Sequence record: MZ234049.1
DNA: 44,293 nucleotides
Direction: 5' to 3' (one strand)
Origin: Escherichia phage vB_EcoP-UTI89UKE2
The notes under the pieces: generated by a model
What the model saw: the letters and a program-made list of their open reading frames with translations, nothing else
Database searches by the model: none
What the model was told of the DNA's origin: nothing
Shown: positions 1-44,287 of the stretch, in pieces
How positions within the stretch are numbered: position 1 is the stretch's first letter
Layout: every line of letters starts with the position of its first letter
Program-made: the position numbers and the translations under genes

Positions 1-924
1 ATGACTACTGAAAACGTCCTCCTGTCTGTTCGTGAAGCTGCAACCGCTGAAATCAAGCAGCACTTAGACAATATCGGCACTTCTTACATCAAAGTTGGCG
101 CTTGTCTGAATGAATTACGCGGTGATTTCGAAGGTCAAAAAGACTTTTTAGCTTATGTAGAATCAGAGTTCGGCATCAAGAAAGCACAATGCTACAAGCT
201 GATGAGTGTAGCCCGTGTCTTTGAAGGGGATGAACGCTTTAAAGGTGTGGCTATGCGTGTAATGCTGGCGCTTGTTCCTTTCGCTGATGAAAATATAATC
301 ATGGAGAAGGCCGCAGAACTCGCCGCAGCTGGCAAGCTGGACACTAATGCCGTAAATGCCCTGATTGATCCTAAGAAAGAGACAAAGGCCGAGACGGTAC
401 AATCTAAGGCGGAGACAGTAAAACCGCAGGAGAACGCGACTGAGGCCGCAGAAACTATGCAAGGACATGCAACCTTTGAGGATTTCATCTTAGAGAAGGC
501 GAAAGAGGAGTTACAAAGTGTGCCGCCAGCAAGTGAGTCGGGTAACGACGAATCCGCACCGTGGGAAGATGAAAGCAAGCCGGAAGACACAAAGGCAGCG
601 CCGCTGGATAACACGGCTAATACTGAGAATGCCGCTATTGCTGGTCTGCTGGCACAAATTAAGGCACTGACTGAGCAATTACAGGCGGCTAATGACCGCA
701 TCGCCTCCTTAAGTAGCGCACGCGAAAGCAAGAAGGCAGCCGCACCTATGCTGCCGCAATTCAAATCTTCCTGCTTCTATGCTCGCTTAGGTTTAAGCGC
801 TGAGGAGGCAACGAAGAAAACAGCAGTTAACAAGGCACGCCGCGAACTGGTTAAGCTAGGCTACGGCGAAGGCCATGAAGCATGGCCCTTAATCTCTGAG
901 GCAGTAGAAGAATTAACTAAGTAA
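1..924 (+). CDS. hypothetical protein (307 aa) immediately upstream of the RNAP gene; structured N-terminal region followed by an Ala/Glu-rich low-complexity segment
   Basis: Long uninterrupted + strand ORF. ATG at position 1 is preceded across the window junction by AAGGTG (44282-44287), so the start is probably genuine in a circular record. No catalytic motifs recognised; same position as T7 gene 0.7 but no kinase motifs. Confidence 0.65.
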   Translation: MTTENVLLSVREAATAEIKQHLDNIGTSYIKVGACLNELRGDFEGQKDFLAYVESEFGIKKAQCYKLMSVARVFEGDERFKGVAMRVMLALVPFADENIIMEKAAELAAAGKLDTNAVNALIDPKKETKAETVQSKAETVKPQENATEAAETMQGHATFEDFILEKAKEELQSVPPASESGNDESAPWEDESKPEDTKAAPLDNTANTENAAIAGLLAQIKALTEQLQAANDRIASLSSARESKKAAAPMLPQFKSSCFYARLGLSAEEATKKTAVNKARRELVKLGYGEGHEAWPLISEAVEELTK

Positions 925-987
925 CCTTATCGGTGGCATCTTCTTAGGTGTCACCTATTAAGGTTTCTTTCACTAGGAGTAAACAAG

Positions 988-3615
988 ATGCAAGACCTAC
1001 ACGCTATTCAACTTCAACTTGAAGAAGAAATGTTTAACGGCGGTATCCGTCGCTTTGAAGCGGACCAACAACGCCAGATTGCATCCGGTAATGAATCAGA
1101 CACGGCATGGAATCGCCGCTTATTGTCCGAGTTAATCGCGCCAATGGCTGAAGGTATTCAGGCATACAAGGAAGAGTATGAAGGTAAAAGAGGCCGTGCA
1201 CCGCGTGCATTAGCTTTCATTAACTGCGTAGAAAACGAAGTGGCAGCATATATCACGATGAAAATCGTTATGGATATGCTGAACACGGATGTAACCTTGC
1301 AGGCTATAGCCATGAATGTAGCTGACCGCATTGAGGACCAAGTACGTTTTAGCAAGCTGGAAGGTCACGCCGCCAAATACTTTGAGAAAGTTAAGAAGTC
1401 ACTTAAGGCAAGTAAGACTAAATCATATCGCCATGCGCACAACGTAGCGGTCGTGGCTGAGAAGTCAGTAGCTGACCGTGACGCTGATTTCTCTCGCTGG
1501 GAGGCGTGGCCTAAAGATACCTTGCTACAAATTGGTATGACCTTGCTAGAAATACTGGAAAATAGTGTATTCTTCAATGGTCAGCCTGTCTTTCTTCGCA
1601 CCTTGCGCACTAATGGTGGCAAGCATGGCGTTTACTACTTACAGACTAGCGAACACGTGGGTGAATGGGTAACTGCATTTAAAGAGCACGTAGCTCAGCT
1701 GAGTCCAGCCTATGCGCCTTGCGTTATTCCTCCTCGTCCGTGGGTTTCTCCGTTTAATGGCGGCTTCCATACTGAGAAAGTAGCAAGCCGTATTCGTCTA
1801 GTAAAAGGCAATCGTGAGCACGTCCGCAAGCTGACCAAAAAGCAAATGCCAGCGGTTTACAAGGCTGTTAACGCTTTGCAGGCGACTAAGTGGCAGGTTA
1901 ATAAAGAGGTTTTGCAGGTAGTAGAGGACGTTATCCGTCTCGATCTTGGTTATGGTGTGCCTTCCTTTAAACCACTCATCGACCGTGAGAACAAGCCAGC
2001 TAATCCAGTGCCGTTAGAGTTCCAGCACCTGCGAGGCCGTGAATTGAAAGAGATGCTAACACCGGAGCAATGGCAGGCCTTCATCAACTGGAAGGGTGAA
2101 TGTACTAAGCTGTATACCGCTGAGACTAAGCGCGGCAGCAAGTCGGCGGCGACCGTCCGCATGGTAGGACAGGCCCGTAAATACAGCCAGTTTGACGCTA
2201 TTTATTTTGTATATGCACTGGATAGCCGTTCACGCGTTTATGCGCAATCTAGCACGCTCTCGCCGCAATCAAACGACTTAGGCAAGGCATTGCTCCGTTT
2301 TACCGAAGGGCAGCGTCTTGATAGCGCTGAGGCGCTTAAGTGGTTTTTGGTGAACGGGGCGAATAACTGGGGTTGGGATAAGAAAACTTTTGACGTGCGC
2401 ACCGCTAACGTGCTGGATAGTGAATTTCAAGACATGTGCCGCGACATTGCAGCGGATCCGCTGACCTTCACTCAATGGGTAAATGCCGACTCCCCTTACG
2501 GCTTCCTTGCATGGTGCTTTGAATATGCGCGTTATCTGGATGCACTGGATGAAGGCACGCAAGACCAATTCATGACGCACCTCCCAGTCCATCAAGATGG
2601 TAGTTGTTCTGGTATCCAGCACTACAGTGCTATGCTACGCGATGCAGTAGGTGCGAAAGCGGTAAACCTTAAGCCCTCTGACTCCCCTCAAGATATTTAT
2701 GGTGCCGTTGCGCAGGTAGTAATTCAGAAGAATTATGCATACATGAATGCAGAGGATGCGGAAACCTTCACTTCTGGCAGCGTGACTTTAACAGGTGCAG
2801 AACTTCGTAGCATGGCTAGTGCGTGGGATATGATAGGAATCACTCGCGGCCTGACCAAAAAGCCTGTAATGACACTACCTTATGGCAGCACACGTCTAAC
2901 CTGCCGTGAATCAGTGATTGATTATATCGTTGATTTGGAAGAAAAAGAGGCCCAACGGGCTATTGCGGAAGGGCGTACCGCCAATCCTGTACATCCTTTT
3001 GATAATGACCGCAAAGACAGCCTGACACCTAGCGCAGCTTATAACTATATGACAGCTTTAATCTGGCCTTCTATTTCGGAAGTGGTTAAAGCTCCTATAG
3101 TGGCAATGAAAATGATTCGTCAGCTTGCACGTTTCGCAGCTAAAAGAAACGAAGGCTTAGAATATCCCTTACCAACTGGCTTCATCTTGCAACAAAAGAT
3201 AATGGCTACCGATATGCTCCGCGTATCCACTTGCTTGATGGGTGAAATCAAGATGAGTCTCCAGATTGAAACAGATGTAGTTGATGAAACGGCAATGATG
3301 GGTGCGGCTGCTCCTAACTTCGTCCATGGTCACGATGCTAGCCACCTGATTCTGACTGTATGTGACCTAGTGGATAAAGGTATTACATCCATTGCAGTCA
3401 TCCATGATTCTTTCGGTACTCATGCAGGACGTACCGCAGACCTGCGGGATAGCTTAAGGGAAGAAATGGTTAAGATGTATCAAAACCATAATGCCCTGCA
3501 AAACCTGCTAGATGTGCACGAAGAGCGTTGGTTAGTAGACACCGGAATCCAAGTACCAGAGCAAGGAGAGTTTGACCTTAACGAAATCTTAGTTTCAGAC
3601 TATTGTTTCGCATAA
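988..3615 (+). CDS. single-subunit DNA-dependent RNA polymerase (T7/SP6 type; closest to SP6 RNAP by recollection)
   Basis: 875-aa ORF with RBS AGGAG at 972-976. Contains the family motifs [27 protein letters not shown] and [12 protein letters not shown], and a C-terminal DYCFA. Length and N-terminus [19 protein letters not shown] match SP6-type RNAP. Confidence 0.95.
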
Positions 3616-7100: not shown

Positions 7101-7205
7101 ATGTCTGCTAACTTACAATTGCAACTTTTTGGCAATTTCACAGAAGCGCAATTCCGCAATAAACATGAAGTTATTGGTTCTTTTATGGTGAAACATGCAG
7201 AATAA
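7101..7205 (+). CDS. small ORF (34 aa)
   Basis: AGGTG RBS at 7091-7095, ATG at 7101, TAA at 7203-7205. Confidence 0.25.
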   Translation: MSANLQLQLFGNFTEAQFRNKHEVIGSFMVKHAE

Positions 7206-7404
7206 ACACAGCCTTAAGATGTTTGATGGTCACGAAGACCTGCAAGCACACATCACTAACCAAGCCTTCCTGTTTGCACAGTTAACTATGGCTGAAGCAA
7301 AGAAGAATAGTCTGACACGTGAGCAGGTTATCAAGGAGGCAACTTGGGAGCCACACCAAGGCAAATACATGGGCCAGAGATTAACTGTAACACGCAGTCG
7401 ATAA
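7195..7404 (+). CDS. hypothetical protein (69 aa; alternative start 7219)
   Basis: ORF ending just before a palindrome hairpin; start ambiguous. Confidence 0.45.
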   Translation: MQNKHSLKMFDGHEDLQAHITNQAFLFAQLTMAEAKKNSLTREQVIKEATWEPHQGKYMGQRLTVTRSR

Positions 7405-22702: not shown

Positions 22703-25104
22703 TGGAAGTACAAGGTTCATTAGGTAGACAAATCCAAGGCATTAGCCAGCAGCCGCCAGCGGTACGCTTGGATGGTCAGTGCACAGCCATGATTAATATG
22801 ATACCTGATGTAGTGAATGGTACTCAATCACGCATGGGTACAACTCATATTGCAAAGATACTTGATGCGGGGACTGATGACATGGCTACTCATCATTATC
22901 GCAGAGGTGATGGTGATGAAGAGTATTTCTTCACGTTGAAGAAAGGACAAGTTCCTGAGATATTTGATAAGTATGGGCGCAAATGTAATGTGACTTCACA
23001 AGATGCACCTATGGCTTACTTGGCTGAGGTGATAAACCCAAGAGAAGATGTACAATTCATGACGATAGCTGATGTTACTTTCATGCTTAATCGTAGGAAA
23101 GTAGTTAAAGCTAGTAACAGGAAGTCACCTAAAGTTGGAAACAAAGCCATTGTGTTTTGTGCGTATGGTCAATATGGTACATCTTATTCCATTGTAATTA
23201 ATGGGACCAACGCTGCTAGTTTTAAAACACCGGATGGTGGAAGTGCAGACCATGTTGAACAAATTCGAACTGAACGTATCACTTCTGAATTATACTCTAA
23301 GTTGCAGCAATGGAGCGGTGTGAGTGACTATGAAATACAAAGAGACGGTACTAGTATATTTATCGAGAGACGGGATGGTGCTAGCTTTACAATAACAACC
23401 ACCGATGGTGCAAAAGGTAAGGACTTAGTGGCTATCAAGAATAAAGTTAGCTCTACTGACCTACTCCCGTCTCGTGCGCCTGCGGGTTATAAAGTGCAAG
23501 TGTGGCCTACTGGCAGCAAACCTGAGTCTCGTTACTGGCTGCAAGCTGAGCCTAAAGAGGGAAACCTTGTATCTTGGAAAGAAACAATAGCTGCCGATGT
23601 ATTACTTGGGTTTGATAAAGGCACAATGCCTTATATCATTGAACGTACAGGTATCGTAGACGGCATAGCTCAATTCAAGATAAGACAAGGCGATTGGGAA
23701 GATCGTAAAGTAGGGGATGACTTGACTAACCCTATGCCCTCTTTTATTGATGAGGAAGTACCCCAGACAATAGGTGGAATGTTCATGGTGCAGAACCGCC
23801 TATGCTTTACAGCAGGTGAAGCGGTTATTGCTTCTCGTACATCATACTTCTTCGATTTCTTTCGTTATACGGTTATCTCTGCATTGGCAACTGACCCATT
23901 TGATATTTTCTCAGATGCTAGTGAAGTCTACCAGCTAAAACATGCAGTGACCTTAGATGGCGCTACCGTGTTGTTCTCTGATAAGTCACAATTCATACTG
24001 CCAGGCGATAAGCCTTTAGAGAAGTCAAATGCATTGCTTAAGCCTGTTACAACATTTGAAGTGAACAATAAAGTGAAGCCAGTAGTAACTGGTGAATCGG
24101 TAATGTTTGCCACTAATGATGGTTCTTACTCTGGTGTACGAGAGTTCTATACAGACTCTTATAGTGACACTAAGAAGGCACAAGCAATCACAAGTCATGT
24201 GAATAAACTCATCGAAGGTAACATTACCAACATGGCAGCAAGCACCAATGTCAACAGGTTACTTGTCACTACCGATAAGTATCGTAACATAATCTACTGC
24301 TACGATTGGTTATGGCAAGGAACAGACCGTGTACAATCAGCATGGCATGTGTGGAAGTGGCCTATAGGTACAAAGGTGCGAGGTATGTTTTATTCTGGCG
24401 AATTACTTTACCTGCTCCTTGAGAGAGGCAATGGTGTCTATCTGGAGAAGACGGATATGGGTGATGCATTAACCTATGGTTTAAATGATCGCATCCGAAT
24501 GGATAGACAGGCAGAGTTAATCTTCCAGCATTTCGAAGCAGAAGATGAATGGGTATCTGAACCGCTACCTTGGGTTCCTACTAACCCAGAACTTTTAGAT
24601 TGCATCTTAATCGAGGGTTGGGATTCATATATTGGTGGTTCTTTCCTATTCAAATACAACCCCGGTGATAACACCTTGTCTACAACCTTTGATATGCATG
24701 ATGATAGCCACGTAAAAGCGAAGGTTATTGTTGGTCAGATTTACCCTCAAGAGTTTGAACCAACACCTGTAGTTATCAGAGATAGGCAAGACCGTGTATC
24801 CTATATTGATGTACCTGTTGTGGGATTAGTTCACCTTAATCTTGATATGTATCCTGATTTCTCCGTGGAGGTTAAGAATGTGAAGAGTGGTAAAGTACGC
24901 AGGGTGCTAGCGTCAAACCGTATAGGTGGTGCTCTCAACAATACAGTAGGTTATGTTGAACCAAGAGAAGGTGTCTTCAGATTCCCACTGAGAGCTAAGA
25001 GTACGGATGCTGTTTATCGTATTATTGTAGAATCACCTCACACATTCCAGCTTCGTGATATTGAGTGGGAAGGGAGCTACAATCCAACCAAAAGGAGGGT
25101 CTAA
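22702..25104 (+). CDS. tail tubular protein B (gp12-like)
   Basis: N-terminal IQGISQQPP matches the T7 gp12 GISQQPD motif; ATG overlaps the upstream stop (TAATG). Confidence 0.88.
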   Translation: MEVQGSLGRQIQGISQQPPAVRLDGQCTAMINMIPDVVNGTQSRMGTTHIAKILDAGTDDMATHHYRRGDGDEEYFFTLKKGQVPEIFDKYGRKCNVTSQDAPMAYLAEVINPREDVQFMTIADVTFMLNRRKVVKASNRKSPKVGNKAIVFCAYGQYGTSYSIVINGTNAASFKTPDGGSADHVEQIRTERITSELYSKLQQWSGVSDYEIQRDGTSIFIERRDGASFTITTTDGAKGKDLVAIKNKVSSTDLLPSRAPAGYKVQVWPTGSKPESRYWLQAEPKEGNLVSWKETIAADVLLGFDKGTMPYIIERTGIVDGIAQFKIRQGDWEDRKVGDDLTNPMPSFIDEEVPQTIGGMFMVQNRLCFTAGEAVIASRTSYFFDFFRYTVISALATDPFDIFSDASEVYQLKHAVTLDGATVLFSDKSQFILPGDKPLEKSNALLKPVTTFEVNNKVKPVVTGESVMFATNDGSYSGVREFYTDSYSDTKKAQAITSHVNKLIEGNITNMAASTNVNRLLVTTDKYRNIIYCYDWLWQGTDRVQSAWHVWKWPIGTKVRGMFYSGELLYLLLERGNGVYLEKTDMGDALTYGLNDRIRMDRQAELIFQHFEAEDEWVSEPLPWVPTNPELLDCILIEGWDSYIGGSFLFKYNPGDNTLSTTFDMHDDSHVKAKVIVGQIYPQEFEPTPVVIRDRQDRVSYIDVPVVGLVHLNLDMYPDFSVEVKNVKSGKVRRVLASNRIGGALNNTVGYVEPREGVFRFPLRAKSTDAVYRIIVESPHTFQLRDIEWEGSYNPTKRRV

Positions 25105-25850
25105 TGGCTATAGGTTCAGCCGTTATGGCTGGTATGTCTTCTATTGGTAGTATGTTTGCAGGTAGCGGTGCAGCGGCCGCTGCTGGGGGTACTGCCGCAG
25201 CAGCAGGAGGGACAGCCGCCGCAGGTGGCGGAGGTTTGCTTGGCTCCCTTGGTAGTTTCTTAGGAGGTTCTTCTGCTGGCTTCTCTAATGCAGGACTGCT
25301 TAGTGCAGGTATGCAAGGTCTTGGGCTTCTAGGCAATCTTTTTGGTGGAAGTGATGAAGCCAAAGCTATGAAGAAAGCTCAGGAGGAGCAATGGCGGCAG
25401 CAGTTAATTGCTACACAAGAAGCATATAAGACAGTAGCAGATGCAGAACGCTCTGCTGCTAAACAGTATCATGCGGATGCAATAAGCAATCAGGCTTCAC
25501 TGCTACAGCAAAGAGCGCAGGTTGCACTACTTGCAGGTGCAACTGGCACTGGTGGTAACTCTGTATCTTCTATGCTGAATGACTTAGCAGCAGAGGGCGG
25601 GAGGAACCAGAGTACAATTATTGATAACTATGAGAATCAGAAGATTAACTTCACCAATCAGCTTAAGTCTATCCAGCGAGGTGGACAGATGCAGATGCGT
25701 GAGTTTAAGAAGCCTTCTGCCGTGAGCACCTTGGTGCAAGGTATACCGAGTCTGGCATCTGCCTATGTAACAGGTAGTAAGTCCGGCATGGCTTTAGGTA
25801 AAGCTTTAACTGATTCTCGTACATATTCATCTGGAACAAGAGGTATTTAA
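25104..25850 (+). CDS. internal virion protein (Gly/Ala-rich N-terminus)
   Basis: ATG overlaps the gp12 stop; low-complexity GGTAAAAGG repeats. Confidence 0.65.
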   Translation: MAIGSAVMAGMSSIGSMFAGSGAAAAAGGTAAAAGGTAAAGGGGLLGSLGSFLGGSSAGFSNAGLLSAGMQGLGLLGNLFGGSDEAKAMKKAQEEQWRQQLIATQEAYKTVADAERSAAKQYHADAISNQASLLQQRAQVALLAGATGTGGNSVSSMLNDLAAEGGRNQSTIIDNYENQKINFTNQLKSIQRGGQMQMREFKKPSAVSTLVQGIPSLASAYVTGSKSGMALGKALTDSRTYSSGTRGI

Positions 25851-28798
25851 TGGCAATTGAGCGACAAGCAGTACAAGGTCTGCCACAAGTGCAGGCCACT
25901 TCTCCTAATGTCATGACCTTTGCACCTCAACAAGTGGGAGGTGTGGAGGCTGGCGTGGCTTCTACCTCCGGTAGTAGATTTATCGAAGACCTTATTCGTG
26001 CAGCAAGCAGCGTGGCTGATGTTACCACTGGTATCCTTAATCAGAAGATTGAGGAAGATAAGGTTATTCAAATGGAGCGGGCATATAATGGATTAATGCC
26101 TTCTGAGGATGCAACTCGTGGTGGCGCTCGTGCTAACATGCTTGTCAAAGCTCAACTGCTAGCTAATGATGAAGCAGCACGAATGAAAGACATGGCTACT
26201 CGTTTCCAAGGAACGGATGATGAGTGGACACAACTTATGGTTGACTCTCGTAATGAGATGCAGAATAAGCTGTTCCAGCAATACCCTGAGTTGCAAGGTG
26301 ACAAAGATACTATGCGTATGGTCACTAATGTCTTCCAAGAACAGCAGCCTCAGATTTGGGCTACACGAACCCAGCATAAACTTGACCGTGAACAAGCAGA
26401 CCGTGAGGATACCTTTGACGGGCGAGTGGCTTCTACTTGGGATTCTAATATTGACCCTGAAGCCTCTGGCTATGCTTTACAGGAACGAATCCGCGAAGGT
26501 CTTACTCAAGGATTACTACCGGAACAGATGCACAAGAAGTTAGTCCAGCGAGCAATTTCACTTGCACAAGGCGGTGATGTTAGCATGGCTGAAGCCCTGA
26601 AGTATGTGAAGGACGATAAGGGTGTTTCTGTTTATGCTAAGAATCCACAGCTTATCACAGCCATCACTAGTGGTAATGCAGTTTGGGCTAGGAATAATGT
26701 AGCTGATGTAACTCGTATGTCTTTCGAAGTTAAAGAATCCTACCTTGCAGGTGATTTAACTGATGAAGAACTGTTGGAACGAGCACAGCACATTAATAAT
26801 CTGACAGGTAACTCTGTCTTCTCTAATCCAGAGCTAGAGGCACTGATGCGCCAACGGGCTAAGCAGAATGCAGAGCTAGGTGCAATGCAGGATATGCGAC
26901 GTGAGCTTTACTCCGACCGCCTGACTGGCTTCCAAGGTAAGACTGATAAAGAGAAGAAGGCTTACATTGATGTTATCAAACAGGATAGCCAACTTTATGC
27001 AGACCAGCAAATCAAACAACGTGGCTTGGACCCTTACAGTCAAGAGGCTGAAGCTATTCGTGGTGCAGTGGAAGTGCAGCGCCTGCAATTCATGAACTCC
27101 AAAGGCTTAGTGGATGATACCTTTGAGTCTCGTATCAAAGCCATGGAATCTATGCTATCGCCTGAGCACTTTGCCAAGGGCGAACCACAGGAGTTGATGA
27201 CTATTCGCCAGTTGTGGGAACAGTTGCCAGAAGAGAGCCGAGGTGTCTTTGGTGACACGGTGAATGGCTACATGGATAACTACAACACTGCACTACAAAT
27301 GGGAGAGACACCTTTGCAGGCTGCAAGGTTTGCGCGTGAAGCACAGCAGAAATTCTCTCGTACTGAGAAGGAAACCAAGAAGTTCAACTCAGCTATTGGA
27401 GATGCACTGGATGAGGTATCTGGTGCTGGCTGGTTTGATGGTAAAACCGAAGTGTCAGACTTAGGTAAAGCTATTGCGGAAGAAGAGTTACGAGCTAAGG
27501 CCAATATGTTGTGGTCTAGTGGTATGCGTAACATGGATTCTATCAAGAAGGCTTTAATTACTTGGGGCAATAAACGCTACACTCAAACAGAGGATGCAAA
27601 GACTTCCGGTGGCTATTTCATTAAAGGTGATTACACTTCTGCATCTGATATGCTTATGTCAGTTGGGAAAGGCGTAAACCCTACCGATGTACCTCTGGCG
27701 CTTGGTAGGTATGTAGAAACACAGATGCCAGAATTGAAGAAGGAGCTTCAAGAGTGGGAAACTAAAGATGATATATACATTGATTACAATGAACAGAAAG
27801 GAACTTTTGTGATTCGTGCTGGTGCAGCAGGTCGACCTCTTTCTGGAGTAATCCCTGTAACCTCTTTAGATACCACTTCACTACTAGATTCTGCCTATCA
27901 GAAGAAAGTAGAGGAACGAGATAAAGGCGAGTATGTTCACCCGTATCGTACAGATATTGGTGCACAAGAGCCTATGCCAGCTAAACCAACTGCCAAAGAT
28001 ATTGGTAAATTTGGACTAGCTAACTTCCTCATGTCTTCTGCTTTTGCTTCTGGTGAGAATCTGCCTTCTAACTTCGAGATTAACTATCGAGGTAATATGC
28101 AACAATTCTATGACAAGCTAGCTATGGATGAGAATAAAGATAAAGTTGGCTTTAATAAGGCAACTGGAACCTTTACTCCATATAAAGACGCTCGCGGTGA
28201 GTCTATCGGTTACGGTCATTTCTTAACGGAAGAAGAGAAGCGAAACGGGTATATTAAGATTGGTGATGAACTAGTTCCCTATCGAGGGTCTATGTCTCAG
28301 CTTACAGAGAGCAAGGCTCGCGCTCTTATGGAGCAAGATGCTAAGAAGCATGTGCCTCCTACTCGTGACTGGAAGATTCCGTTTGACCAGATGCATCCTG
28401 CACAGCAACGTGGCTTGATGGATTTAACCTACAATTTAGGTAAAGGTGGAATCCAGAACTCACCGCGTGCTCTTGCTGCATTCAAAGCTGGTAAGCTTAC
28501 GGAAGGCTTTATCGAAATGCTGGGCACTGCATCAAGTGAAGGTAAGCGTATTCCTGGCCTACTGAAGCGACGCGCTGAGGCATACAATATGGCATCTGCT
28601 GGTGGTGTGCCTAAGATTACCGAAGTGGAGACTCGTGAAGATGGCTCCATGTGGGTTAGGTTTGGTGGACCTATGCCAGCAGGTTCTGTCTCGGCATGGA
28701 CTCATAAACGTATTGGCGCGGATGGTTGGTATCAGGTTTATGAGGCTGCACCTACCAAGTTAGCTAAAGGTTCTAAGGTAGGTAAAGTTAAGTTGTAG
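25850..28798 (+). CDS. internal virion (ejection) protein with C-terminal T4-lysozyme-like muramidase domain
   Basis: 982 aa; residues encoded around 28150-28600 carry MDENKDK ... YKDARGESIGYGHFLTE ... MDLTYNLG ... LLKRRAEAYNM, resembling the T4 lysozyme fold with Glu/Asp catalytic positions retained. Confidence 0.8.
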   Translation: MAIERQAVQGLPQVQATSPNVMTFAPQQVGGVEAGVASTSGSRFIEDLIRAASSVADVTTGILNQKIEEDKVIQMERAYNGLMPSEDATRGGARANMLVKAQLLANDEAARMKDMATRFQGTDDEWTQLMVDSRNEMQNKLFQQYPELQGDKDTMRMVTNVFQEQQPQIWATRTQHKLDREQADREDTFDGRVASTWDSNIDPEASGYALQERIREGLTQGLLPEQMHKKLVQRAISLAQGGDVSMAEALKYVKDDKGVSVYAKNPQLITAITSGNAVWARNNVADVTRMSFEVKESYLAGDLTDEELLERAQHINNLTGNSVFSNPELEALMRQRAKQNAELGAMQDMRRELYSDRLTGFQGKTDKEKKAYIDVIKQDSQLYADQQIKQRGLDPYSQEAEAIRGAVEVQRLQFMNSKGLVDDTFESRIKAMESMLSPEHFAKGEPQELMTIRQLWEQLPEESRGVFGDTVNGYMDNYNTALQMGETPLQAARFAREAQQKFSRTEKETKKFNSAIGDALDEVSGAGWFDGKTEVSDLGKAIAEEELRAKANMLWSSGMRNMDSIKKALITWGNKRYTQTEDAKTSGGYFIKGDYTSASDMLMSVGKGVNPTDVPLALGRYVETQMPELKKELQEWETKDDIYIDYNEQKGTFVIRAGAAGRPLSGVIPVTSLDTTSLLDSAYQKKVEERDKGEYVHPYRTDIGAQEPMPAKPTAKDIGKFGLANFLMSSAFASGENLPSNFEINYRGNMQQFYDKLAMDENKDKVGFNKATGTFTPYKDARGESIGYGHFLTEEEKRNGYIKIGDELVPYRGSMSQLTESKARALMEQDAKKHVPPTRDWKIPFDQMHPAQQRGLMDLTYNLGKGGIQNSPRALAAFKAGKLTEGFIEMLGTASSEGKRIPGLLKRRAEAYNMASAGGVPKITEVETREDGSMWVRFGGPMPAGSVSAWTHKRIGADGWYQVYEAAPTKLAKGSKVGKVKL

Positions 28799-28810
28799 TA
28801 CCTAACTCAA

Positions 28811-28840
28811 GGCTTGTCTCACATGTGAGACAGGTCTTTA
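28811..28840 (+). terminator. palindrome hairpin (core TGTCTCACATGTGAGACA, 28815-28832) with GC clamp and U-rich tail
   Basis: Same 18-bp palindrome as at 6239, between two internal virion protein genes. Confidence 0.45.
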
Positions 28841-28862
28841 TGATAGGCACTATGGAGGAATT

Positions 28863-31800
28863 ATGGAACAAGACATTAAGACTAATTGGGCTGGATATGT
28901 CCAGTCTACTCCTGAGCCGTTTTCTATTGAGGCGGCTCCGGTATCGGCTCCTACGATACGCCAGCGTAATGAGTTACAAGAGCAAGTTCTTGAAGCTAAA
29001 GCTGACGCTGATATTTTAGGTGCTGTAGGTGCTGCCTTCCAGAATGAGTGGTTGGCATTCGGAGGCAAGCGGTGGTATGACCGTGCCACTGCTGATTTCA
29101 CACCTCAACCAGACTTTGAGATACAACCTGAGCAACGTGAAGCACTACGTTTCAAATATGGTACGGATATGATGCAGACAATCACTGAGGGTGTTCGTTC
29201 TGAGGATGAATTGAACTTCCGTATTCAGAATGCTGATGAAGACCTTGAGCGCAATAAGCGCATTGCTCAGGCTGGCTGGGTTGGCTCTGTGGCGACGATT
29301 GGCGCTGCTGTGCTTGACCCTGTGGGATGGGTTGCCTCTATTCCAACCGGTGGTGCCGCTAAAGTTGGACTCGTAGGACGTGCTGTGCGTGGCGCTATCG
29401 CCGCTGGCGTGAGTAATGCCGCTATTGAATCCGTATTGGTCCAAGGTGACATGACTCGTGATTTAGATGACATTATGGTAGCACTAGGTTCCGGTATGGC
29501 GATGGGTGGCGTTATTGGCGCTGTAGCGCGTGGTAGGGCCACTAAGCTCAGTGAGCAAGGGGATGACAGGGCTGCGAGCATTGTGCGCAGTGCAGACGCA
29601 GGGGACCGCTATGTGCGTGCTGTTGCTGATGATAGTATCGGTGCGATGCGTGTTAAGGGTGAAGAGGTACTCACGGAGGGTGCATTTGATGTCTCTAGCA
29701 AAGGTGAAGATTTGCTGAAAACCCTACAGCGGGAAGGTAATGCAATTGATATGACCCCTCGCCGCTGGGCCGGAACTCTGTCTGCCCTTGGTACTGTCGT
29801 ACATTCCTCTCAGGATGCAAGTGTACGCGGCCTTGGTGCTCGCCTGTTTGAGTCCCCCCAAGGCTTAGGTATGCAGAAGGCATCTGCTAGTCTCATGCAG
29901 AATACTAACTTGAACCGTCTGAAATCTGCTGATATGAATCGTTTCAACGATGGGTTCGATTTATGGCTCAAAGAGAATAATATCAACCCGGTTGCAGGTC
30001 ATACTAACTCTCACTATGTGCAGCAATATAATGAGAAGGTATGGGAAGCTGTACGCATCGGTATGGACGAGTCTACGCCTAAGTCTATCCGTATGGCAGC
30101 AGAGGGGCAGCAAGCTATGTATCGTGAAGCATTAGCATTACGTCAACGCTCTGGTGAAGCTGGGTTTGAAAAGGTTAAAGCAGATGATAAGTACATGCCT
30201 GATATTTTTGACAGTATGAAGGCTCGTCGTCAATTCAGTATGCACGATAAAGAGGACATCATTGAGTTATTCTCTCGTGCATACCAGAATGGTTCTCGTA
30301 AGGTTCCAAAGGAAGTGGCTGATGATATTGCACGAGCACAAGTAAACCGCGTTGCTGATGCCACCTTGACCGGACAGCTTAGCTTTGAAAAGGCTATGTC
30401 TGGTCAAACCAAAGCAGAATATGAAGCACTCATGCGCAAAGCAGGCTTTAGTGATGAAGAGATTGAAAAGATGGTAGAAGCTCTGGATAATAAAGAAACC
30501 AGAGATAATATCTCTAACCGAGCTAAGATGAGTTTAGGCTTAGATGTTACTCAAGAGTACAATGGTATTCGTATGCGTGACTTTATGAACACTAACGTGG
30601 AAGAGTTAACAGATAACTACATGAAGGAAGCGGCAGGTGGTGCTGCCTTGGCTCGTCAAGGTTTCTCTACCTATCAGGCTGCACTTAATGCAATTGATCT
30701 TGTAGAGCGAAATGCACGAAATGCAGCTAAAGATACAAAAGCACACGCACAATTTGAAGCGGAGTCGGCTAAGATCCGTCAATCAGAGCCTGATTACAAG
30801 AAGGCACAAGAGAAGATTGAAGAGTTAAAGAAGCGACTTAAATTGAAAGAGAAAGATGAAGCAGCAGGTCTGGCTATTGATGAAGAAATCCGTCAGATGC
30901 GAGAGGGGCTTCGCTTGATTATGGGTAAATCTATCGATTCAAACCCACAAGATTTGTCTACTAAAATGCTGCGTCGTGGGCGTGACATTACAGGCGTACT
31001 TCGCTTAGGTCAGATGGGCTTCGCACAGCTAGGTGAACTTGCTAACTTCATGGGTGAGTTTGGTATTGCTGCCACCACTATGGCTTTAGGTAAGCAATTC
31101 CGCTTCACCTCTAAGGCGTTGCGTAATGGCGATGGCTTCTTTCGAGATAAGAATTTAGCTGAGGTTGAGCGAATGGTAGGTTACATTGGTGAAGACAACT
31201 GGCTAACAACTAAGGGTGCGCGTCCAGATGAGTTTGGTGATGTAACCACAGTGCGAGGTATGATGGCCCATTTTGACCAGTCCATGAACTCTATACGACG
31301 TGCTCAGACAAACCTATCCCTCTTCCGCATGGCACAGGGTTCTCTGGAGCGAATGACCAATAGGCAAATAGCTTTGTCTTTCATTGACCACCTTGAAGGC
31401 AAGAAGATTATCCCTCAGAAGAAACTGGAGGAACTTGGTCTTACTCAGGGGTTCATGACTAACCTACAGAAGCACTATGATGCTAACTCTAAAGGTTCTG
31501 GCTTGCTTGGCTTTGATACAATGCCTTATGCCATGGGTGAAACTTTAGCTAATGCTATTCGTCGTAAGTCAGGTCTAATTATCCAACGTAACTTCATTGG
31601 TGATGAAGGTATCTGGATGAACAAAGCACTAGGTAAGACATTTGCACAGCTTAAGTCATTCTCTCTTGTATCTGGTGAGAAGCAATTTGGTCGAGGGATT
31701 CGACACGATAAAATTGGTCTTGCTAAGAAGACAGCTTACGGGTTTGCTTTGGGTTCAATAGTGTATGCGGCAAAAGCCTATGTGAACTCTATTGGGCGAG

Positions 31801-32171
31801 AAGACCAAGATGAATATTTGGAAGAGAAGTTATCGCCTAAAGGGTTGGCCTTTGGTGCAATGGGTATGATGAGTACAACTGCTGTATTTAGTCTAGGTGG
31901 AGATTTCTTAGGTGGCCTAGGTGTTCTACCTTCTGAGTTAGTACAATCCCGTTATGAGGCTGGCTTTCAGACTAAGGGTTTGATAGACCAAATACCACTA
32001 GTAGGTGTTGGTCAAGATGCATATCGTTTAGCAGATTCTATAACTAAATATGCAGAGGGTGATACAGAAGGTGTAGATGTGGCACGTAGGGCTTTACGCT
32101 TAGTGCCTCTAACTAATGTAATAGGAATCCAGAACGCATTGCGTTATGGCTTAGATGAACTGGAGGATTGA
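28863..32171 (+). CDS. large internal virion protein (1102 aa; gp16-like core/ejection protein)
   Basis: RBS GGAGG; size and position. Confidence 0.8.
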   Translation: MEQDIKTNWAGYVQSTPEPFSIEAAPVSAPTIRQRNELQEQVLEAKADADILGAVGAAFQNEWLAFGGKRWYDRATADFTPQPDFEIQPEQREALRFKYGTDMMQTITEGVRSEDELNFRIQNADEDLERNKRIAQAGWVGSVATIGAAVLDPVGWVASIPTGGAAKVGLVGRAVRGAIAAGVSNAAIESVLVQGDMTRDLDDIMVALGSGMAMGGVIGAVARGRATKLSEQGDDRAASIVRSADAGDRYVRAVADDSIGAMRVKGEEVLTEGAFDVSSKGEDLLKTLQREGNAIDMTPRRWAGTLSALGTVVHSSQDASVRGLGARLFESPQGLGMQKASASLMQNTNLNRLKSADMNRFNDGFDLWLKENNINPVAGHTNSHYVQQYNEKVWEAVRIGMDESTPKSIRMAAEGQQAMYREALALRQRSGEAGFEKVKADDKYMPDIFDSMKARRQFSMHDKEDIIELFSRAYQNGSRKVPKEVADDIARAQVNRVADATLTGQLSFEKAMSGQTKAEYEALMRKAGFSDEEIEKMVEALDNKETRDNISNRAKMSLGLDVTQEYNGIRMRDFMNTNVEELTDNYMKEAAGGAALARQGFSTYQAALNAIDLVERNARNAAKDTKAHAQFEAESAKIRQSEPDYKKAQEKIEELKKRLKLKEKDEAAGLAIDEEIRQMREGLRLIMGKSIDSNPQDLSTKMLRRGRDITGVLRLGQMGFAQLGELANFMGEFGIAATTMALGKQFRFTSKALRNGDGFFRDKNLAEVERMVGYIGEDNWLTTKGARPDEFGDVTTVRGMMAHFDQSMNSIRRAQTNLSLFRMAQGSLERMTNRQIALSFIDHLEGKKIIPQKKLEELGLTQGFMTNLQKHYDANSKGSGLLGFDTMPYAMGETLANAIRRKSGLIIQRNFIGDEGIWMNKALGKTFAQLKSFSLVSGEKQFGRGIRHDKIGLAKKTAYGFALGSIVYAAKAYVNSIGREDQDEYLEEKLSPKGLAFGAMGMMSTTAVFSLGGDFLGGLGVLPSELVQSRYEAGFQTKGLIDQIPLVGVGQDAYRLADSITKYAEGDTEGVDVARRALRLVPLTNVIGIQNALRYGLDELED

Positions 32172-36266: not shown

Positions 36267-36944
36267 GTGTTAGGTATTACAGGACAACGAAGTGTAAGTC
36301 ATCAAGCTAAGGTTGCCACGGAAGTGGCTCCTATCGTTGATATCTCAGATGTGTCTGACGTTAACTCTTATCTAAACCAAAAGTACCTATCAGGTAAACA
36401 GGAAGGATATACTGTTCTGACTAAGAAAGGTTCACGTTATTCATTGTATGCTGCAACAGGTTCTAAGCCAGAAGATAAGTGGTTGCCTTTAGAGCAAGCA
36501 ACCCTACCTGATTCGAGTGCATTAGAGCTAATTGACACCATCGATGTTGAAGTTGCAAGTGCAAGCGACACAGTAGAGGTTAATGTAACCAAAGAGAGGA
36601 CTGTGTGCATCCAGACGCCTATGAAGGACTTAGCAGGTGATACAGTTTACCGGCAAGAATTGACTGCCAACATTAACCTTACCATTAATGAAAACGGAAG
36701 CCCAAGCGATACGGTTAAATTAAACATATCAATTCCTAATTTGCCAGGAACATCTAGTGGGTCTTACTATACAGTTGACAATGTGCTGTGTACTTCTTTT
36801 GGAGACGACAGTCCTGTTATTGCCAATATAGATGTCGATAAGGCTACCACTAACTTGATTGCTGTTACACTTCGTAAAGAGACGGCAACAGATATTAGGC
36901 TGTCTCTTGTAATTAGGTGGTCAATGCCAGTGGAGATTGTATAA
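36267..36944 (+). CDS. hypothetical protein (about 225 aa), paralog 3 with C-terminal extension; GTG start inferred
   Basis: Motif KYLSGKQEGYTVL ... YAATGSKPEDKWLPL; start codon uncertain (TTG 36237 or GTG 36267). Confidence 0.55.
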   Translation: MLGITGQRSVSHQAKVATEVAPIVDISDVSDVNSYLNQKYLSGKQEGYTVLTKKGSRYSLYAATGSKPEDKWLPLEQATLPDSSALELIDTIDVEVASASDTVEVNVTKERTVCIQTPMKDLAGDTVYRQELTANINLTINENGSPSDTVKLNISIPNLPGTSSGSYYTVDNVLCTSFGDDSPVIANIDVDKATTNLIAVTLRKETATDIRLSLVIRWSMPVEIV

Positions 36945-37964: not shown

Positions 37965-38300
37965 ATGGCTAAGTTAACTAAACCCAAGACAACGGGCTTA
38001 CTACATAGAGATACTGTACTAGCTAACTTATTAGATAATTTACTATCTAAAAGGCGTGTTACATTTGAAGGTGTAGCTCCAAGTGAAGATACTAAAATTG
38101 AGATAGAAGTACCTGTGACAGGAGACTTAGATTCTTCGTGGGCATCAATTGTATCATTAAGTACACCTGCACTTTGTACAGCTTGGATCACTAAACTGTC
38201 AGATACTACTTTAGAGATTCATGTATTTCATACAGCACAAGTAGAAATAGACATAGAGGTAGATGTTTACGTTCTAGGTAAGCACACTGTCAGTGCGTAA
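37965..38300 (+). CDS. hypothetical protein (111 aa) preceding the tailspike gene
   Basis: RBS GGAG then ATG at 37965. A 111-aa ORF at this position is recalled for K1E-type phages, where K1-5 carries a second tailspike instead. Confidence 0.6.
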   Translation: MAKLTKPKTTGLLHRDTVLANLLDNLLSKRRVTFEGVAPSEDTKIEIEVPVTGDLDSSWASIVSLSTPALCTAWITKLSDTTLEIHVFHTAQVEIDIEVDVYVLGKHTVSA

Positions 38301-43460: not shown

Positions 43461-43498
43461 TATAATGTAACCTAACTAACTAAATGAGGATTAATAAC

Positions 43499-43852
43499 AT
43501 GGCTATGTCTAATATGACTTACTCTCAGGTTTACAACACCGCTCATGCTGCATTAGTTGAACGTGTCTGGGATGATGCTATTGATTGTATCGATAACGCA
43601 CATGATGCAATCCATGAGGTGGCGGATAGTGCTGTACCAATCTATTATGCTGACATCTTCTCGGTGATGGCCAGTGAAGGAATCGACCACTTCTTCGAGG
43701 ATTCTGGCTTAATGCCAGACACTAAGGATGTGACTGTCGTACTACAAGCCCGTATTTATGAACAACTCACCATTGATTTATGGGAACGTGTTCAAGATAT
43801 GATTGATGAGTACATCGATTCCGCTGAGGATTCAGAAGAAGAGGAAGAATAA
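43499..43852 (+). CDS. ocr: Ocr-like DNA-mimic anti-restriction protein (T7 gene 0.3 homologue)
   Basis: MAMSNMTY ... [13 protein letters not shown] ... [11 protein letters not shown] ... [14 protein letters not shown] and an acidic C-terminus closely follow T7 Ocr as recalled. RBS GAGGA; the track start at 43484 is an extension. Confidence 0.85.
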
Positions 43853-43854
43853 GG

Positions 43855-43968
43855 ATGGAAAAGCAATATAACTTTATCTTTTCAGACGGTGTAACCCTGA
43901 AGTGTTCCCTACGATTCGCTCAGATTCGTGAGGAAGTGCTAGGTACTACATACAAACTATTTAGCTGA
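43855..43968 (+). CDS. small early ORF (37 aa)
   Basis: ATG 3 nt after the ocr stop; TGA at 43966-43968. Confidence 0.35.
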   Translation: MEKQYNFIFSDGVTLKCSLRFAQIREEVLGTTYKLFS

Positions 43969-43983
43969 CACTATAAGAGAAGG
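43962..43983 (+). promoter_or_regulatory. degenerate phage promoter-like sequence (TAGCTGACACTATAAGAGAAGG)
   Basis: Core CACTATA retained but downstream AGAGAAG instead of GAAG; may be the weak first phage promoter. Confidence 0.3.
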
Positions 43984-44044
43984 CTTAACAAGGCGTTGCT
44001 ACGGTAGCGCCTGATTAAACTTTCACTTACTAGGAGTTGAGATT

Positions 44045-44230
44045 ATGAAAACCTTGATTGGATGCTTCTTGTTGGCTTCTCTTGCTCTGGCATTTACCGC
44101 TAAAGCTGGTTATGACGCTTATAAAGTAGAACAAGCCCAGCAAGACTGGGCCAAAAAGTTCAACTTGTGTAGCAAGAGCAACACCTACGAGTATTGCAAC
44201 AAAACACTAAGACACTTATGGAAAGAGTAA
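44045..44230 (+). CDS. small secreted protein (61 aa) with N-terminal signal peptide
   Basis: RBS AGGAG; MKTLIGCFLLASLALAFTAKA is a signal-peptide-like N-terminus with AKA cleavage motif; mature part has two Cys. Confidence 0.55.
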   Translation: MKTLIGCFLLASLALAFTAKAGYDAYKVEQAQQDWAKKFNLCSKSNTYEYCNKTLRHLWKE

Positions 44231-44264
44231 CTAGCCTATAGCCTACCTGAGTGGGCTATGTGAT

Positions 44265-44287
44265 ATTTACTTACACTATATAAGGTG
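44265..44287 (+). promoter_or_regulatory. degenerate promoter-like sequence (ATTTACTTACACTATATAAGGTG) at the window end, upstream of the ORF starting at position 1
   Basis: Partial match to the phage promoter consensus; its 3' end provides the AAGGTG RBS for the position-1 ATG if the record is circular. Confidence 0.3.

Follow-up and report, generated by a model that had tools for sequence, protein, structure and literature searches.

We analysed the genome of Escherichia phage vB_EcoP-UTI89UKE2 (sequence record MZ234049.1), a complete phage genome of 44,293 nucleotides that is referred to in full as the window, with the focus on gene 5, a small open reading frame (ORF) near the end of the record. 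The ORF was found exactly where a preliminary description of the sequence had placed it; it is complete, runs on the + strand from an ATG at 44045 to a TAA at 44228-44230, and encodes 61 amino acids (MKTLIGCFLLASLALAFTAKAGYDAYKVEQAQQDWAKKFNLCSKSNTYEYCNKTLRHLWKE). The last 894 bases of the window are 100% identical to Escherichia phage vB_EcoP-UTI89UKE3 (MZ234050.1), a Vectrevirus. Vectrevirus belongs to the Molineuxvirinae, in the SP6/K1E/K1-5 group within the T7 supergroup. The window protein is identical to those of ACG-C91, K1E (KY435490), and mutPK1A2, and 98% identical to gp5 of K1-5; it is the product of the 'gene 5' of K1-5 and is not newly found, many records already listing it as a hypothetical protein.

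The record is circularly permuted, with base 1 being the A of the ATG of a gp7-like gene, whose Shine-Dalgarno (SD) sequence AAGGTG stands at the far end of the record (44282-44287). The actual ends of the genome must fall in the interval from the tailspike region (around 40930) to the first early ORFs (around 41900). Across the junction, the order is small ORFs, ocr, a gp4-like ORF, gene 5, the gp7-like gene, and the RNA polymerase gene; in conventionally oriented relatives, the gp7-like gene likewise follows the gene 5 ORF and stands ahead of the RNA polymerase gene. The gp4-like ORF was kept in all Molineuxvirinae loci examined. The coordinates of these and all other features are collected in Table 1. 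The location of gene 5, after ocr and ahead of the phage RNA polymerase gene, agrees with the previous designation of the product as an early protein, and the organisation of the T7 group suggests that the region would be early and transcribed by the host polymerase. A sigma-70 scan gave two matches at 10 of 12 positions upstream on the + strand (41789 and 42587), with a total match count not above the shuffled expectation.

For validation of the reading frame, we compared the window allele with the most divergent allele of its own type (type A), carried by ULINTec6 and Mt1B1_P10, which shares 79% protein and 77% DNA identity. Between the two alleles, 27 of about 35 synonymous sites differ, as against 15 of about 148 non-synonymous sites. 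The resulting ratio of non-synonymous to synonymous differences per site (pN/pS) was 0.13 in the annotated frame, corresponding to a dN/dS of about 0.05-0.1, and the synonymous sites were saturated. When all six frames were counted, the bias appeared in the annotated frame only; this frame is free of internal stops, and the other five contain three to eight stops each. The preliminary description had taken the ORF for a genuine protein-coding gene, and the frame-restricted ratio bears this out; judged from these substitutions, gene 5 is under strong purifying selection. The K1-5 allele differs by a one-codon in-frame insertion that adds a Lys. Across the alleles, K2, A19-K20-A21, both cysteines of the mature part, and most of the second predicted helix are invariant.

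One alternative is that the ORF arose by chance, or that it is kept through some other role of the DNA or RNA. The product is small, orphan, and dispensable, which would fit this explanation, and the Mt1B1_P10 record (MT496971.1; locus L017, 1499-1663) annotates an ORF on the opposite strand instead. Against it stand the 27 synonymous and 15 non-synonymous differences in this frame alone, the stops in the five others, the in-frame K1-5 indel, and the conserved SD sequence. The reverse-strand ORF also varies in length, from 37 amino acids in the window to 54 in Mt1B1_P10. We rejected it because of the frame-specific substitution pattern, by which the opposite-strand annotation is an error. A non-coding origin has next to no credence left and is effectively refuted by the substitution tests.

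In the family searches, the protein matched the profile of PHROG 20059, of unknown function, over residues 1-61 of 61 (E = 2.8e-47). A word-indexed search of 5.8 billion proteins returned six clusters, all from Vectrevirus, including two frameshifted fragments. Among 1.84 billion representatives, an exhaustive profile search recovered only the protein's own family and low-complexity or signal-only matches. Pfam gave sub-threshold noise only, PADLOC gave nothing meaningful for the protein, and no match was found among the PDB sequences. On these searches, the gene 5 protein is an orphan family. No paper on gene 5 or on SP6 gp6 was found in the searchable literature. Two 54-residue variants from Logan assemblies (P0005 and P0006) are frameshifted in or next to a run of five A (GCCAAAAAGTTC, about 44150-44160); they represent either homopolymer sequencing errors or natural pseudogenes.

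The preliminary description had proposed a canonical Sec signal peptide, and all sequence features of a type I signal, the substrate of signal peptidase I, were indeed found. The short, positive n-region consists of M1-K2, with K2 invariant in all alleles. The h-region (T3-F17) comprises 15 uncharged residues with a mean Kyte-Doolittle hydropathy of 2.34, and its changes between alleles exchange one apolar residue for another (F/L, A/S, A/V, and T/A). The c-region reads T-A-K-A, placing Ala at -3 and -1 (A19 and A21), followed at +1 (position 22) by G or D and not by Pro. A rule-based signal filter passed four of the 395 six-frame ORFs of at least 30 amino acids in the window, including gene 5 with a cut after residue 21. 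In the control run, OmpA, DsbA, and MalE passed, and PhoA and Bla were missed; the filter is therefore conservative. The three other ORFs that passed are presumably spurious.

A third cysteine, C7, sits within the signal, and L4-I5-G6-C7 can be read as a lipoprotein (signal peptidase II) motif. In the lipobox [LVI][ASTVI][GAS]C, the Cys normally falls at about position 15-25, after a full-length signal. The lipoprotein reading was rejected, since only three residues precede the motif and no h-region comes before the Cys.

The remaining part of the product agrees with the predicted mature peptide of about 40 residues with two cysteines: it counts 40 amino acids, contains Cys42 and Cys51, has a mass of 4.9 kDa and an isoelectric point of 8.7, and is strongly hydrophilic (grand average of hydropathy -1.28). 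AlphaFold2 (AF2) models were built on a four-sequence alignment. The mature part was modelled as a helix (residues 2-24), a turn, and a second helix (27-39), with a predicted local distance difference test score (pLDDT) of 72.5. In this model, the turn has one cysteine four to five residues away on either side (mature positions 21 and 30), a geometry in which one disulfide could staple the helical hairpin. The full-length precursor gave a single helix over residues 5-44 with a pLDDT of 62 and was set aside as unusable. A Foldseek search with the mature model gave no PDB match, and the BFVD matches appeared only at E > 3. We consider translation and Sec targeting, followed by a cut behind Ala21 that would give a two-helix, basic periplasmic peptide, to be well supported by the sequence.

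We then considered what occupies the position of gene 5 in relatives. The window and AAPEc6 are nearly identical as far as the ATG and once more from the stop codon onward, with unrelated sequence in between. Because the swap spans exactly the interval from ATG to stop between near-identical flanks, the content behaves as an accessory cassette. Of 75 region-matching phage records, 13 carry type A, 32 carry type B, and 14 carry type C. Type B (AAPEc6) encodes 75 amino acids, with a hydrophobic segment at the N-terminus and a Lys/Arg cluster behind it, and type C (VEc3 and others) encodes 41 amino acids with a C-terminal hydrophobic segment. More distant loci were gathered through the gp7-like protein (63-97% identity), and their Salmonella and Klebsiella phages added four further contents: type D, which is SP6 gp6 (63 amino acids, MSKVTNILVSIVILLVVLWSAIG|S...); type E, a family of 51-62 amino acids in Klebsiella phages (MTRIINVAVVFLFATLALIASG|S...); type E', its distant relative in Salmonella phages (MKTLINVLACFLLGSIILLASAG|V...); and type F, 65 amino acids with an N-terminal hydrophobic segment. 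At three loci (L027-L029), the slot is empty. The architecture is the same throughout the subfamily, with at least six unrelated content types of 41-75 amino acids in addition to the empty state. An SD-like GAGG or AGGAG is retained ahead of every slot allele.

Every occupant carries a hydrophobic stretch, either signal-like or transmembrane, with a 15-residue hydropathy maximum of 1.86-2.99. In types A, D, E, and E', small residues occupy -3 and -1 right after the apolar stretch, and the putative cleavage sites of the latter three are SAIG|S, IASG|S, and ASAG|V. Types E and E' are distantly homologous, at 37% identity (E = 1e-4). The similarity between A and E' is confined to the signal peptide (pairwise E = 7e-5), and that between B and F is weak (E = 0.05); merging A with E' or B with F was rejected for insufficient similarity. 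In the Salmonella phages PST_H2 and vB_SalP_SE29 (H115/H116), only residues 19-63 of SP6 gp6 match, and the N-terminus differs. Since A and E' share the signal only and an SP6-type cargo occurs on another N-terminus, signal and cargo may recombine separately, which suggests that the two are exchangeable as separate modules. Judged by its contents, the slot, bounded between the ocr/gp4 and the gp7-like/RNA polymerase genes, looks dedicated to envelope action.

The comparison bears on the fate of the signal. The product may instead be an uncleaved signal anchor, a single inner-membrane helix with the 40-residue tail in the periplasm that acts within the membrane, for example by perturbing the membrane potential or an integral membrane protein. 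Part of the evidence speaks for such an anchor or weakens the case for the release of a folded peptide: the rule set used for the signal call is crude; the apolar stretch between K2 and K20, at 17 residues, is compatible with an anchor and borderline for a bilayer span; the AF2 models, from four sequences, reach no more than moderate confidence (pLDDT 62-72), and the full-length model is one helix over residues 5-44; and all the other slot alleles have a transmembrane-like segment, with no cleavage motif in B, C, and F. However, no type A allele departs from A-K-A at -3/-1, the small residues at these positions in D, E, and E' form a pattern expected only if cleavage is selected, and an h-region of 15 residues is typical of cleaved signals, not of anchors. 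We consider the uncleaved form improbable and retain a cleaved, exported peptide.

For the inheritance of the slot allele, we tested 42 shared genes in 16 Vectrevirus genomes, the window and 15 other complete ones (six with type A, five with B, and five with C), by comparing within-type and between-type closeness under label permutation; with 16 genomes, the power is limited. None of the 42 genes was associated with the allele type after correction. The adjacent gp7-like gene gave p = 0.49 and the RNA polymerase gene p = 0.54. The window's own gp7-like gene is 97% identical to those of type B and C phages and 88% identical to those of other type A phages. A correlation with the host through the K1 capsule was rejected, as K1-specific phages include carriers of A and of B, and A, B, and C were found on the same isolation strains. 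Two phages recorded under the name K1E differ in the slot (KY435490.1, type A, 44246 bases; AM084415.1/NC_007637.1, type B, 45251 bases) and are not the same phage stock. The unlinked alleles, together with the phages of one strain that carry different alleles, show that the slot is freely shuffled by recombination and is tied to neither host type nor partner gene. The slot thus displays the features of a phage accessory region, namely conserved flanks, unrelated contents, an empty state, and inheritance independent of the backbone, and gene 5 is a dispensable, horizontally exchanged accessory function.

The cassette is bordered by promoter-like elements and RNA hairpins. The window contains 11 strong matches to a phage-polymerase promoter on the + strand, with the consensus ATTTACTGGACACTATAGAAG. 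The element ahead of gene 5 departs from the 11-copy consensus at -12 to -10 and at +1, and both elements flanking gene 5 are divergent copies in which A or T replaces the G at consensus +1. The core TGACACTATAAGA of the first element is nearly invariant in distant relatives, with one of 14 loci (L037) reading TAGCACTATAAGAG, and is retained in phages with an empty slot. The second element is not conserved in type C phages, which read TCATTATA, and a promoter function is therefore doubtful. With the first element directly upstream, gene 5 may be transcribed by the host polymerase as well as by that of the phage, and hence not only early.

The 5' hairpin folds with -24.9 kcal/mol (z = -4.6) and shows compensatory changes at 8 of 15 pairs among 11 sequences, whereas the 3' hairpin folds with -18.2 kcal/mol (z = -3.7) and shows them at 5 of 17 pairs among nine sequences. 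The 3' hairpin was listed as terminator-like, without a proper U-run. In empty-slot phages, the first promoter-like element and the 5' hairpin are present, and the ORF and the 3' hairpin are absent. Both hairpins have the traits of a T7-type RNase III site, an irregular hairpin of about 20 base pairs that contains an internal loop and covaries. In T7, RNase III cleaves polycistronic transcripts at sites of this kind (PMC6938266). By analogy, we infer that the flanking hairpins are putative processing or stabilising sites, which would give a short monocistronic messenger RNA (mRNA). Rfam has no matching family for such sites over the region, and a sub-threshold miRNA-like hairpin match was dismissed as meaningless.

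Table 1. Positions of the features of the gene 5 locus, of other genes of the window, and of the corresponding loci (L) of relatives
Feature	Position	Strand	Remark
ocr	43484-43852		Pfam PF08684, E = 1e-41
gp4-like ORF, 37 amino acids, starts MEKQYNFIFSDG	43855-43968	+	PHROG 11746; left border of the variable slot
Promoter-like element ATTTAGCTGACACTATAAGAG	43959-43979	+	Overlaps the end of gp4
5' RNA hairpin	43982-44022 (extended fold 43974-44029)	+	Lower stem UUAA/UUAA, 2x2 internal loop, upper stem of 9 base pairs
SD sequence AGGAG	44032-44036	+	8 nucleotides before the ATG
Predicted signal peptide, residues 1-21, MKTLIGCFLLASLALAFTAKA	44045-44107	+	Predicted signal peptidase I cleavage after A21
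Predicted mature peptide, residues 22-61, 40 amino acids	44108-44230	+	Two Cys; includes the TAA
3' RNA hairpin	44225-44272 (core of 10 base pairs, 44237-44260)	+	Immediately behind the stop codon; bounds the cassette on the right
Second, degenerate promoter-like element ATTTACTTACACTATATAAGG	44265-44287	+	Overlaps the SD sequence AAGGTG of the gp7-like gene
gp7-like gene, 307 amino acids	1-924	+	PHROG 4571 (unknown function); follows 44293 by permutation
RNA polymerase gene	988-3615		Downstream of the gp7-like gene
Phage-polymerase promoter matches	3718, 6019, 6867, 10395, 11164, 12397, 15565, 20646, 33422, 35527, 37873	+	
Three internal virion/ejection protein genes	25104-32171		Identified by order and length against relatives
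Lysozyme/transglycosylase-domain proteins	25850-28798 and 28863-32171		
Slot occupants of relatives (B, C, D, E/E', F)	L003 1887-2114; L011 2146-2271; L014 2181-2372; L026, L030-L037 about 1236-1439		
ocr types in relatives	L025-L030, L033-L037, about 700-1100		Compared with window 43484-43852
Split genes in relatives	L050 6404-9170; L051 11312-14460; L052 37390-40034		ULINTec6; ULINTec4; K1E

The product was then compared with known systems. T4 Spackle (gp61.3) is an early periplasmic protein that inhibits the tail lysozyme of a superinfecting phage (PMC7677548). Like Spackle, gene 5 is an early gene of a virulent coliphage, with a removed signal of similar length (22 residues in Spackle, 21 predicted for gene 5) and a small all-helical mature protein whose two cysteines are able to form one disulfide, the latter two being predictions for gene 5. 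However, the mature gene 5 product has 40 residues and two helices, whereas Spackle has 75 residues in a helical bundle, and no sequence or fold match that would indicate homology was found in PHROGs, Pfam, the PDB sequences, the 1.84 billion representatives, or Foldseek against PDB and BFVD. The ejection proteins that SP6-like virions deliver into the periplasm were annotated as lysozyme/transglycosylase in two of the compared genomes; therefore, a target comparable to that of Spackle exists. The gene 5 allele and the lysozyme-domain ejection protein show no covariation (p = 0.97).

T7 gene 0.5 takes the equivalent position, after ocr and gene 0.4 and before the RNA polymerase gene. Its product, a hydrophobic class I protein of 47 amino acids, has been described as uncharacterised and putatively membrane-associated (PMC12798971, PMC11863960). 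Unlike gene 5, gp0.5 is hydrophobic almost throughout, without a cleavable signal or a hydrophilic exported domain. The two belong to different families (PHROG 16572 for gp0.5, PHROG 20059 for gene 5), and position and hydrophobic character are all that they were found to share.

P22 SieA is an inner-membrane blocker of the conduit formed by ejection proteins and exists as three types that share under 30% identity (PMC10883804). Like SieA and T4 Imm, gene 5 is phage-encoded, dispensable, and membrane-targeted, with several unrelated or barely related types at one locus. The two differ from gene 5 in being retained integral membrane proteins, whereas the type A product is predicted to be released; no homology was found, and SieA, unlike gene 5, is expressed from a prophage. 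Gnarl1-3 resemble gene 5 as non-essential, highly variable proteins of 40-90 amino acids that lytic phages encode between conserved genes and that are capable of acting on the cell surface (PMC12373910; bioRxiv 10.1101/2023.04.06.535777). Gnarl3, however, acts on the cytoplasmic GalU, whereas the gene 5 peptide is predicted to be periplasmic, and the proteins share no homology. Searching the consulted supplements of the Gnarl paper (PMC12373910) for N-terminal sequence words of alleles A, B, and C gave no match. Taken with these systems, gene 5 is an uncharacterised member of a familiar kind, the small envelope-aimed accessory proteins of phages.

From the sequence features, we consider gene 5, on a balance tipped slightly in its favour, to encode an exported, cleaved accessory peptide of a K1E/K1-5-like virulent podophage. 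The steps that we infer, covering export, cleavage, disulfide, timing, target, and role, would be as follows. A preprotein of 7 kDa would be made from the first minutes of infection, from the early region transcribed by the host polymerase, with extra transcription probably starting at the phage-promoter-like element and the mRNA delimited by the two RNase III-like hairpins. The Sec machinery would insert the preprotein into the inner membrane, and signal peptidase I would cut it after Ala21, so that a helix-turn-helix peptide of 40 residues, basic and hydrophilic, would be set free in the periplasm. In this compartment, Cys42 and Cys51, symmetric about the turn, could be oxidised to a disulfide staple, and the peptide would bind a component of the cell envelope and not a cytoplasmic target. 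An envelope target is the most likely one, since the slot is kept for small membrane-targeted proteins in SP6-like phages and, positionally, in T7 gene 0.5.

As to the role, the preliminary description had suggested superinfection exclusion or modification of envelope functions. The present data neither support nor refute it: no homologue of known function and no structural match were found, and the allele showed no linkage to ejection-protein, lysis, or tailspike genes in the 16 genomes. The strongest circumstantial point for an envelope role is that every unrelated slot occupant in the relatives is membrane-targeted. By analogy with T4 Spackle and P22 SieA, we tentatively suggest, as the leading single guess, that the peptide might protect the infected cell at the envelope by blocking genome delivery by later phages, a role that we would sooner doubt than assume. 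Several observations weigh against it. A lock-and-key relation among kin phages would not have been expected to leave p values of 0.92-0.97 for the ejection proteins and 0.39 for the tailspike, in a test of low power. Isolates from the same strain differ in allele: on APEC 45, ULINTec6 carries type A, and ULINTec4 and ULINTec7 carry type C; on the K1 strain LU_100, Phi100-A is of type A and PhiNW-E1 of type B. Moreover, the soluble parts of B/F and C appear to be cytoplasmic by the positive-inside rule, so the common theme of the slot would be 'membrane' and not 'periplasm'.

An equally reasonable alternative to exclusion is a role directed at the host, in which the partner of the exported peptide is a host protein of the periplasm or inner membrane, such as the domain of a stress-sensor kinase, a capsule or lipopolysaccharide assembly factor, or a membrane-embedded antiphage system, and the binding keeps the envelope permissive or disarms a defence. 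Such an action would resemble that of other variable accessory genes of phages beside ocr, and MgrB, a small bacterial membrane regulator, offers a further likeness. The slot is a classic accessory region, non-essential, hypervariable, and beside the anti-restriction gene ocr, and the lack of linkage to any phage gene suits a host target better than a phage target. Variable accessory regions are reportedly enriched in counter-defence genes (bioRxiv 10.1101/2023.04.06.535777), and accessory proteins of 40-90 amino acids in lytic phages have been reported to remodel the O-antigen (Gnarl1-3, PMC12373910). However, the protein has no similarity to known defence or anti-defence proteins in PHROGs and PADLOC, and it mimics no cellular protein among the 1.84 billion representatives. 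The alleles also show no correlation with the host strain, different ones plating on the same isolates, and the known Gnarl target, GalU, is cytoplasmic. On this evidence, we regard a host target as rather unlikely.

A regulator of lysis timing was also considered, in which the periplasmic peptide modulates the holin, endolysin, or spanin, or senses superinfection. The T4 RI antiholin is the model for such a function. An exported, small, periplasmic product would suit it, and T4 Spackle mutants also affect lysis inhibition (PMC7677548). The gene, however, belongs to the early class and lies about 33 kb from the lysis genes, its alleles are not associated with those of the holin-sized (p = 0.70) or endolysin-sized (p = 0.48) ORF, and the slot is empty in some phages. 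A function in lysis timing is accordingly far-fetched.

For the slot as a whole, we offer with considerable doubt the idea of a recombination-bounded 'envelope effector' cassette of the T7 supergroup, whose unrelated mini-proteins, traded among virulent podophages, would all work at the inner membrane or in the periplasm and exclude competing phages or silence envelope-based host responses. If true, type A would be the smallest known Sec-exported, disulfide-stapled phage effector, and a Spackle-like function would have been reinvented in 40 residues. The new elements of the analysis are the selection on gene 5, the hairpin-bounded slot that holds one of at least six unrelated membrane-targeted proteins or none, the absence of linkage, and the positional counterpart in T7 gene 0.5. 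We know of no function assigned to T7 gene 0.5 after 40 years. The small early genes are the least understood part of the textbook genomes of the T7 supergroup, and, in light of the slot, what had been a list of 'hypothetical proteins' becomes a testable idea, that of an envelope-directed function with interchangeable solutions. K1E, K1-5, and the UTI89 phages are therapeutic candidates against K1 and uropathogenic Escherichia coli. If the occupants exclude phages or modify the envelope, the design of cocktails, in which phages may block each other, and host-range engineering would be affected. Additionally, the cassette borders represent a natural, neutral insertion site for payloads.

Further variation was observed outside the slot. 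The ocr gene occurs as clearly different sequence types (one beginning MERNANAYY...) among phages with the same gp4, and these distinct types beside a shared gp4 indicate that the area just left of the slot is also mosaic. In the linkage test, the ORF 7195-7404 showed a nominal association with the slot allele (p = 0.005), which was rejected because it fails the correction for 42 tests. This ORF of 69 amino acids has two C-terminal variants, ...ATWEPHQGKYMGQ... and ...SEVKRKIRSR*; the ATWEPHQGKYMGQ variant was carried by each of the six type A genomes, against four of the other ten, and this distribution underlies the nominal association. Insertions of HNH homing endonucleases split the primase/helicase gene in ULINTec6, the DNA polymerase gene in ULINTec4, and the large terminase gene in K1E, and the window copies of these three genes appear uninterrupted. 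Finally, the ORFs 36621-36944 and 37965-38300 were present in only two and eight of the 16 compared genomes, respectively; these additional accessory genes lie close to the lysis genes, in the late region.

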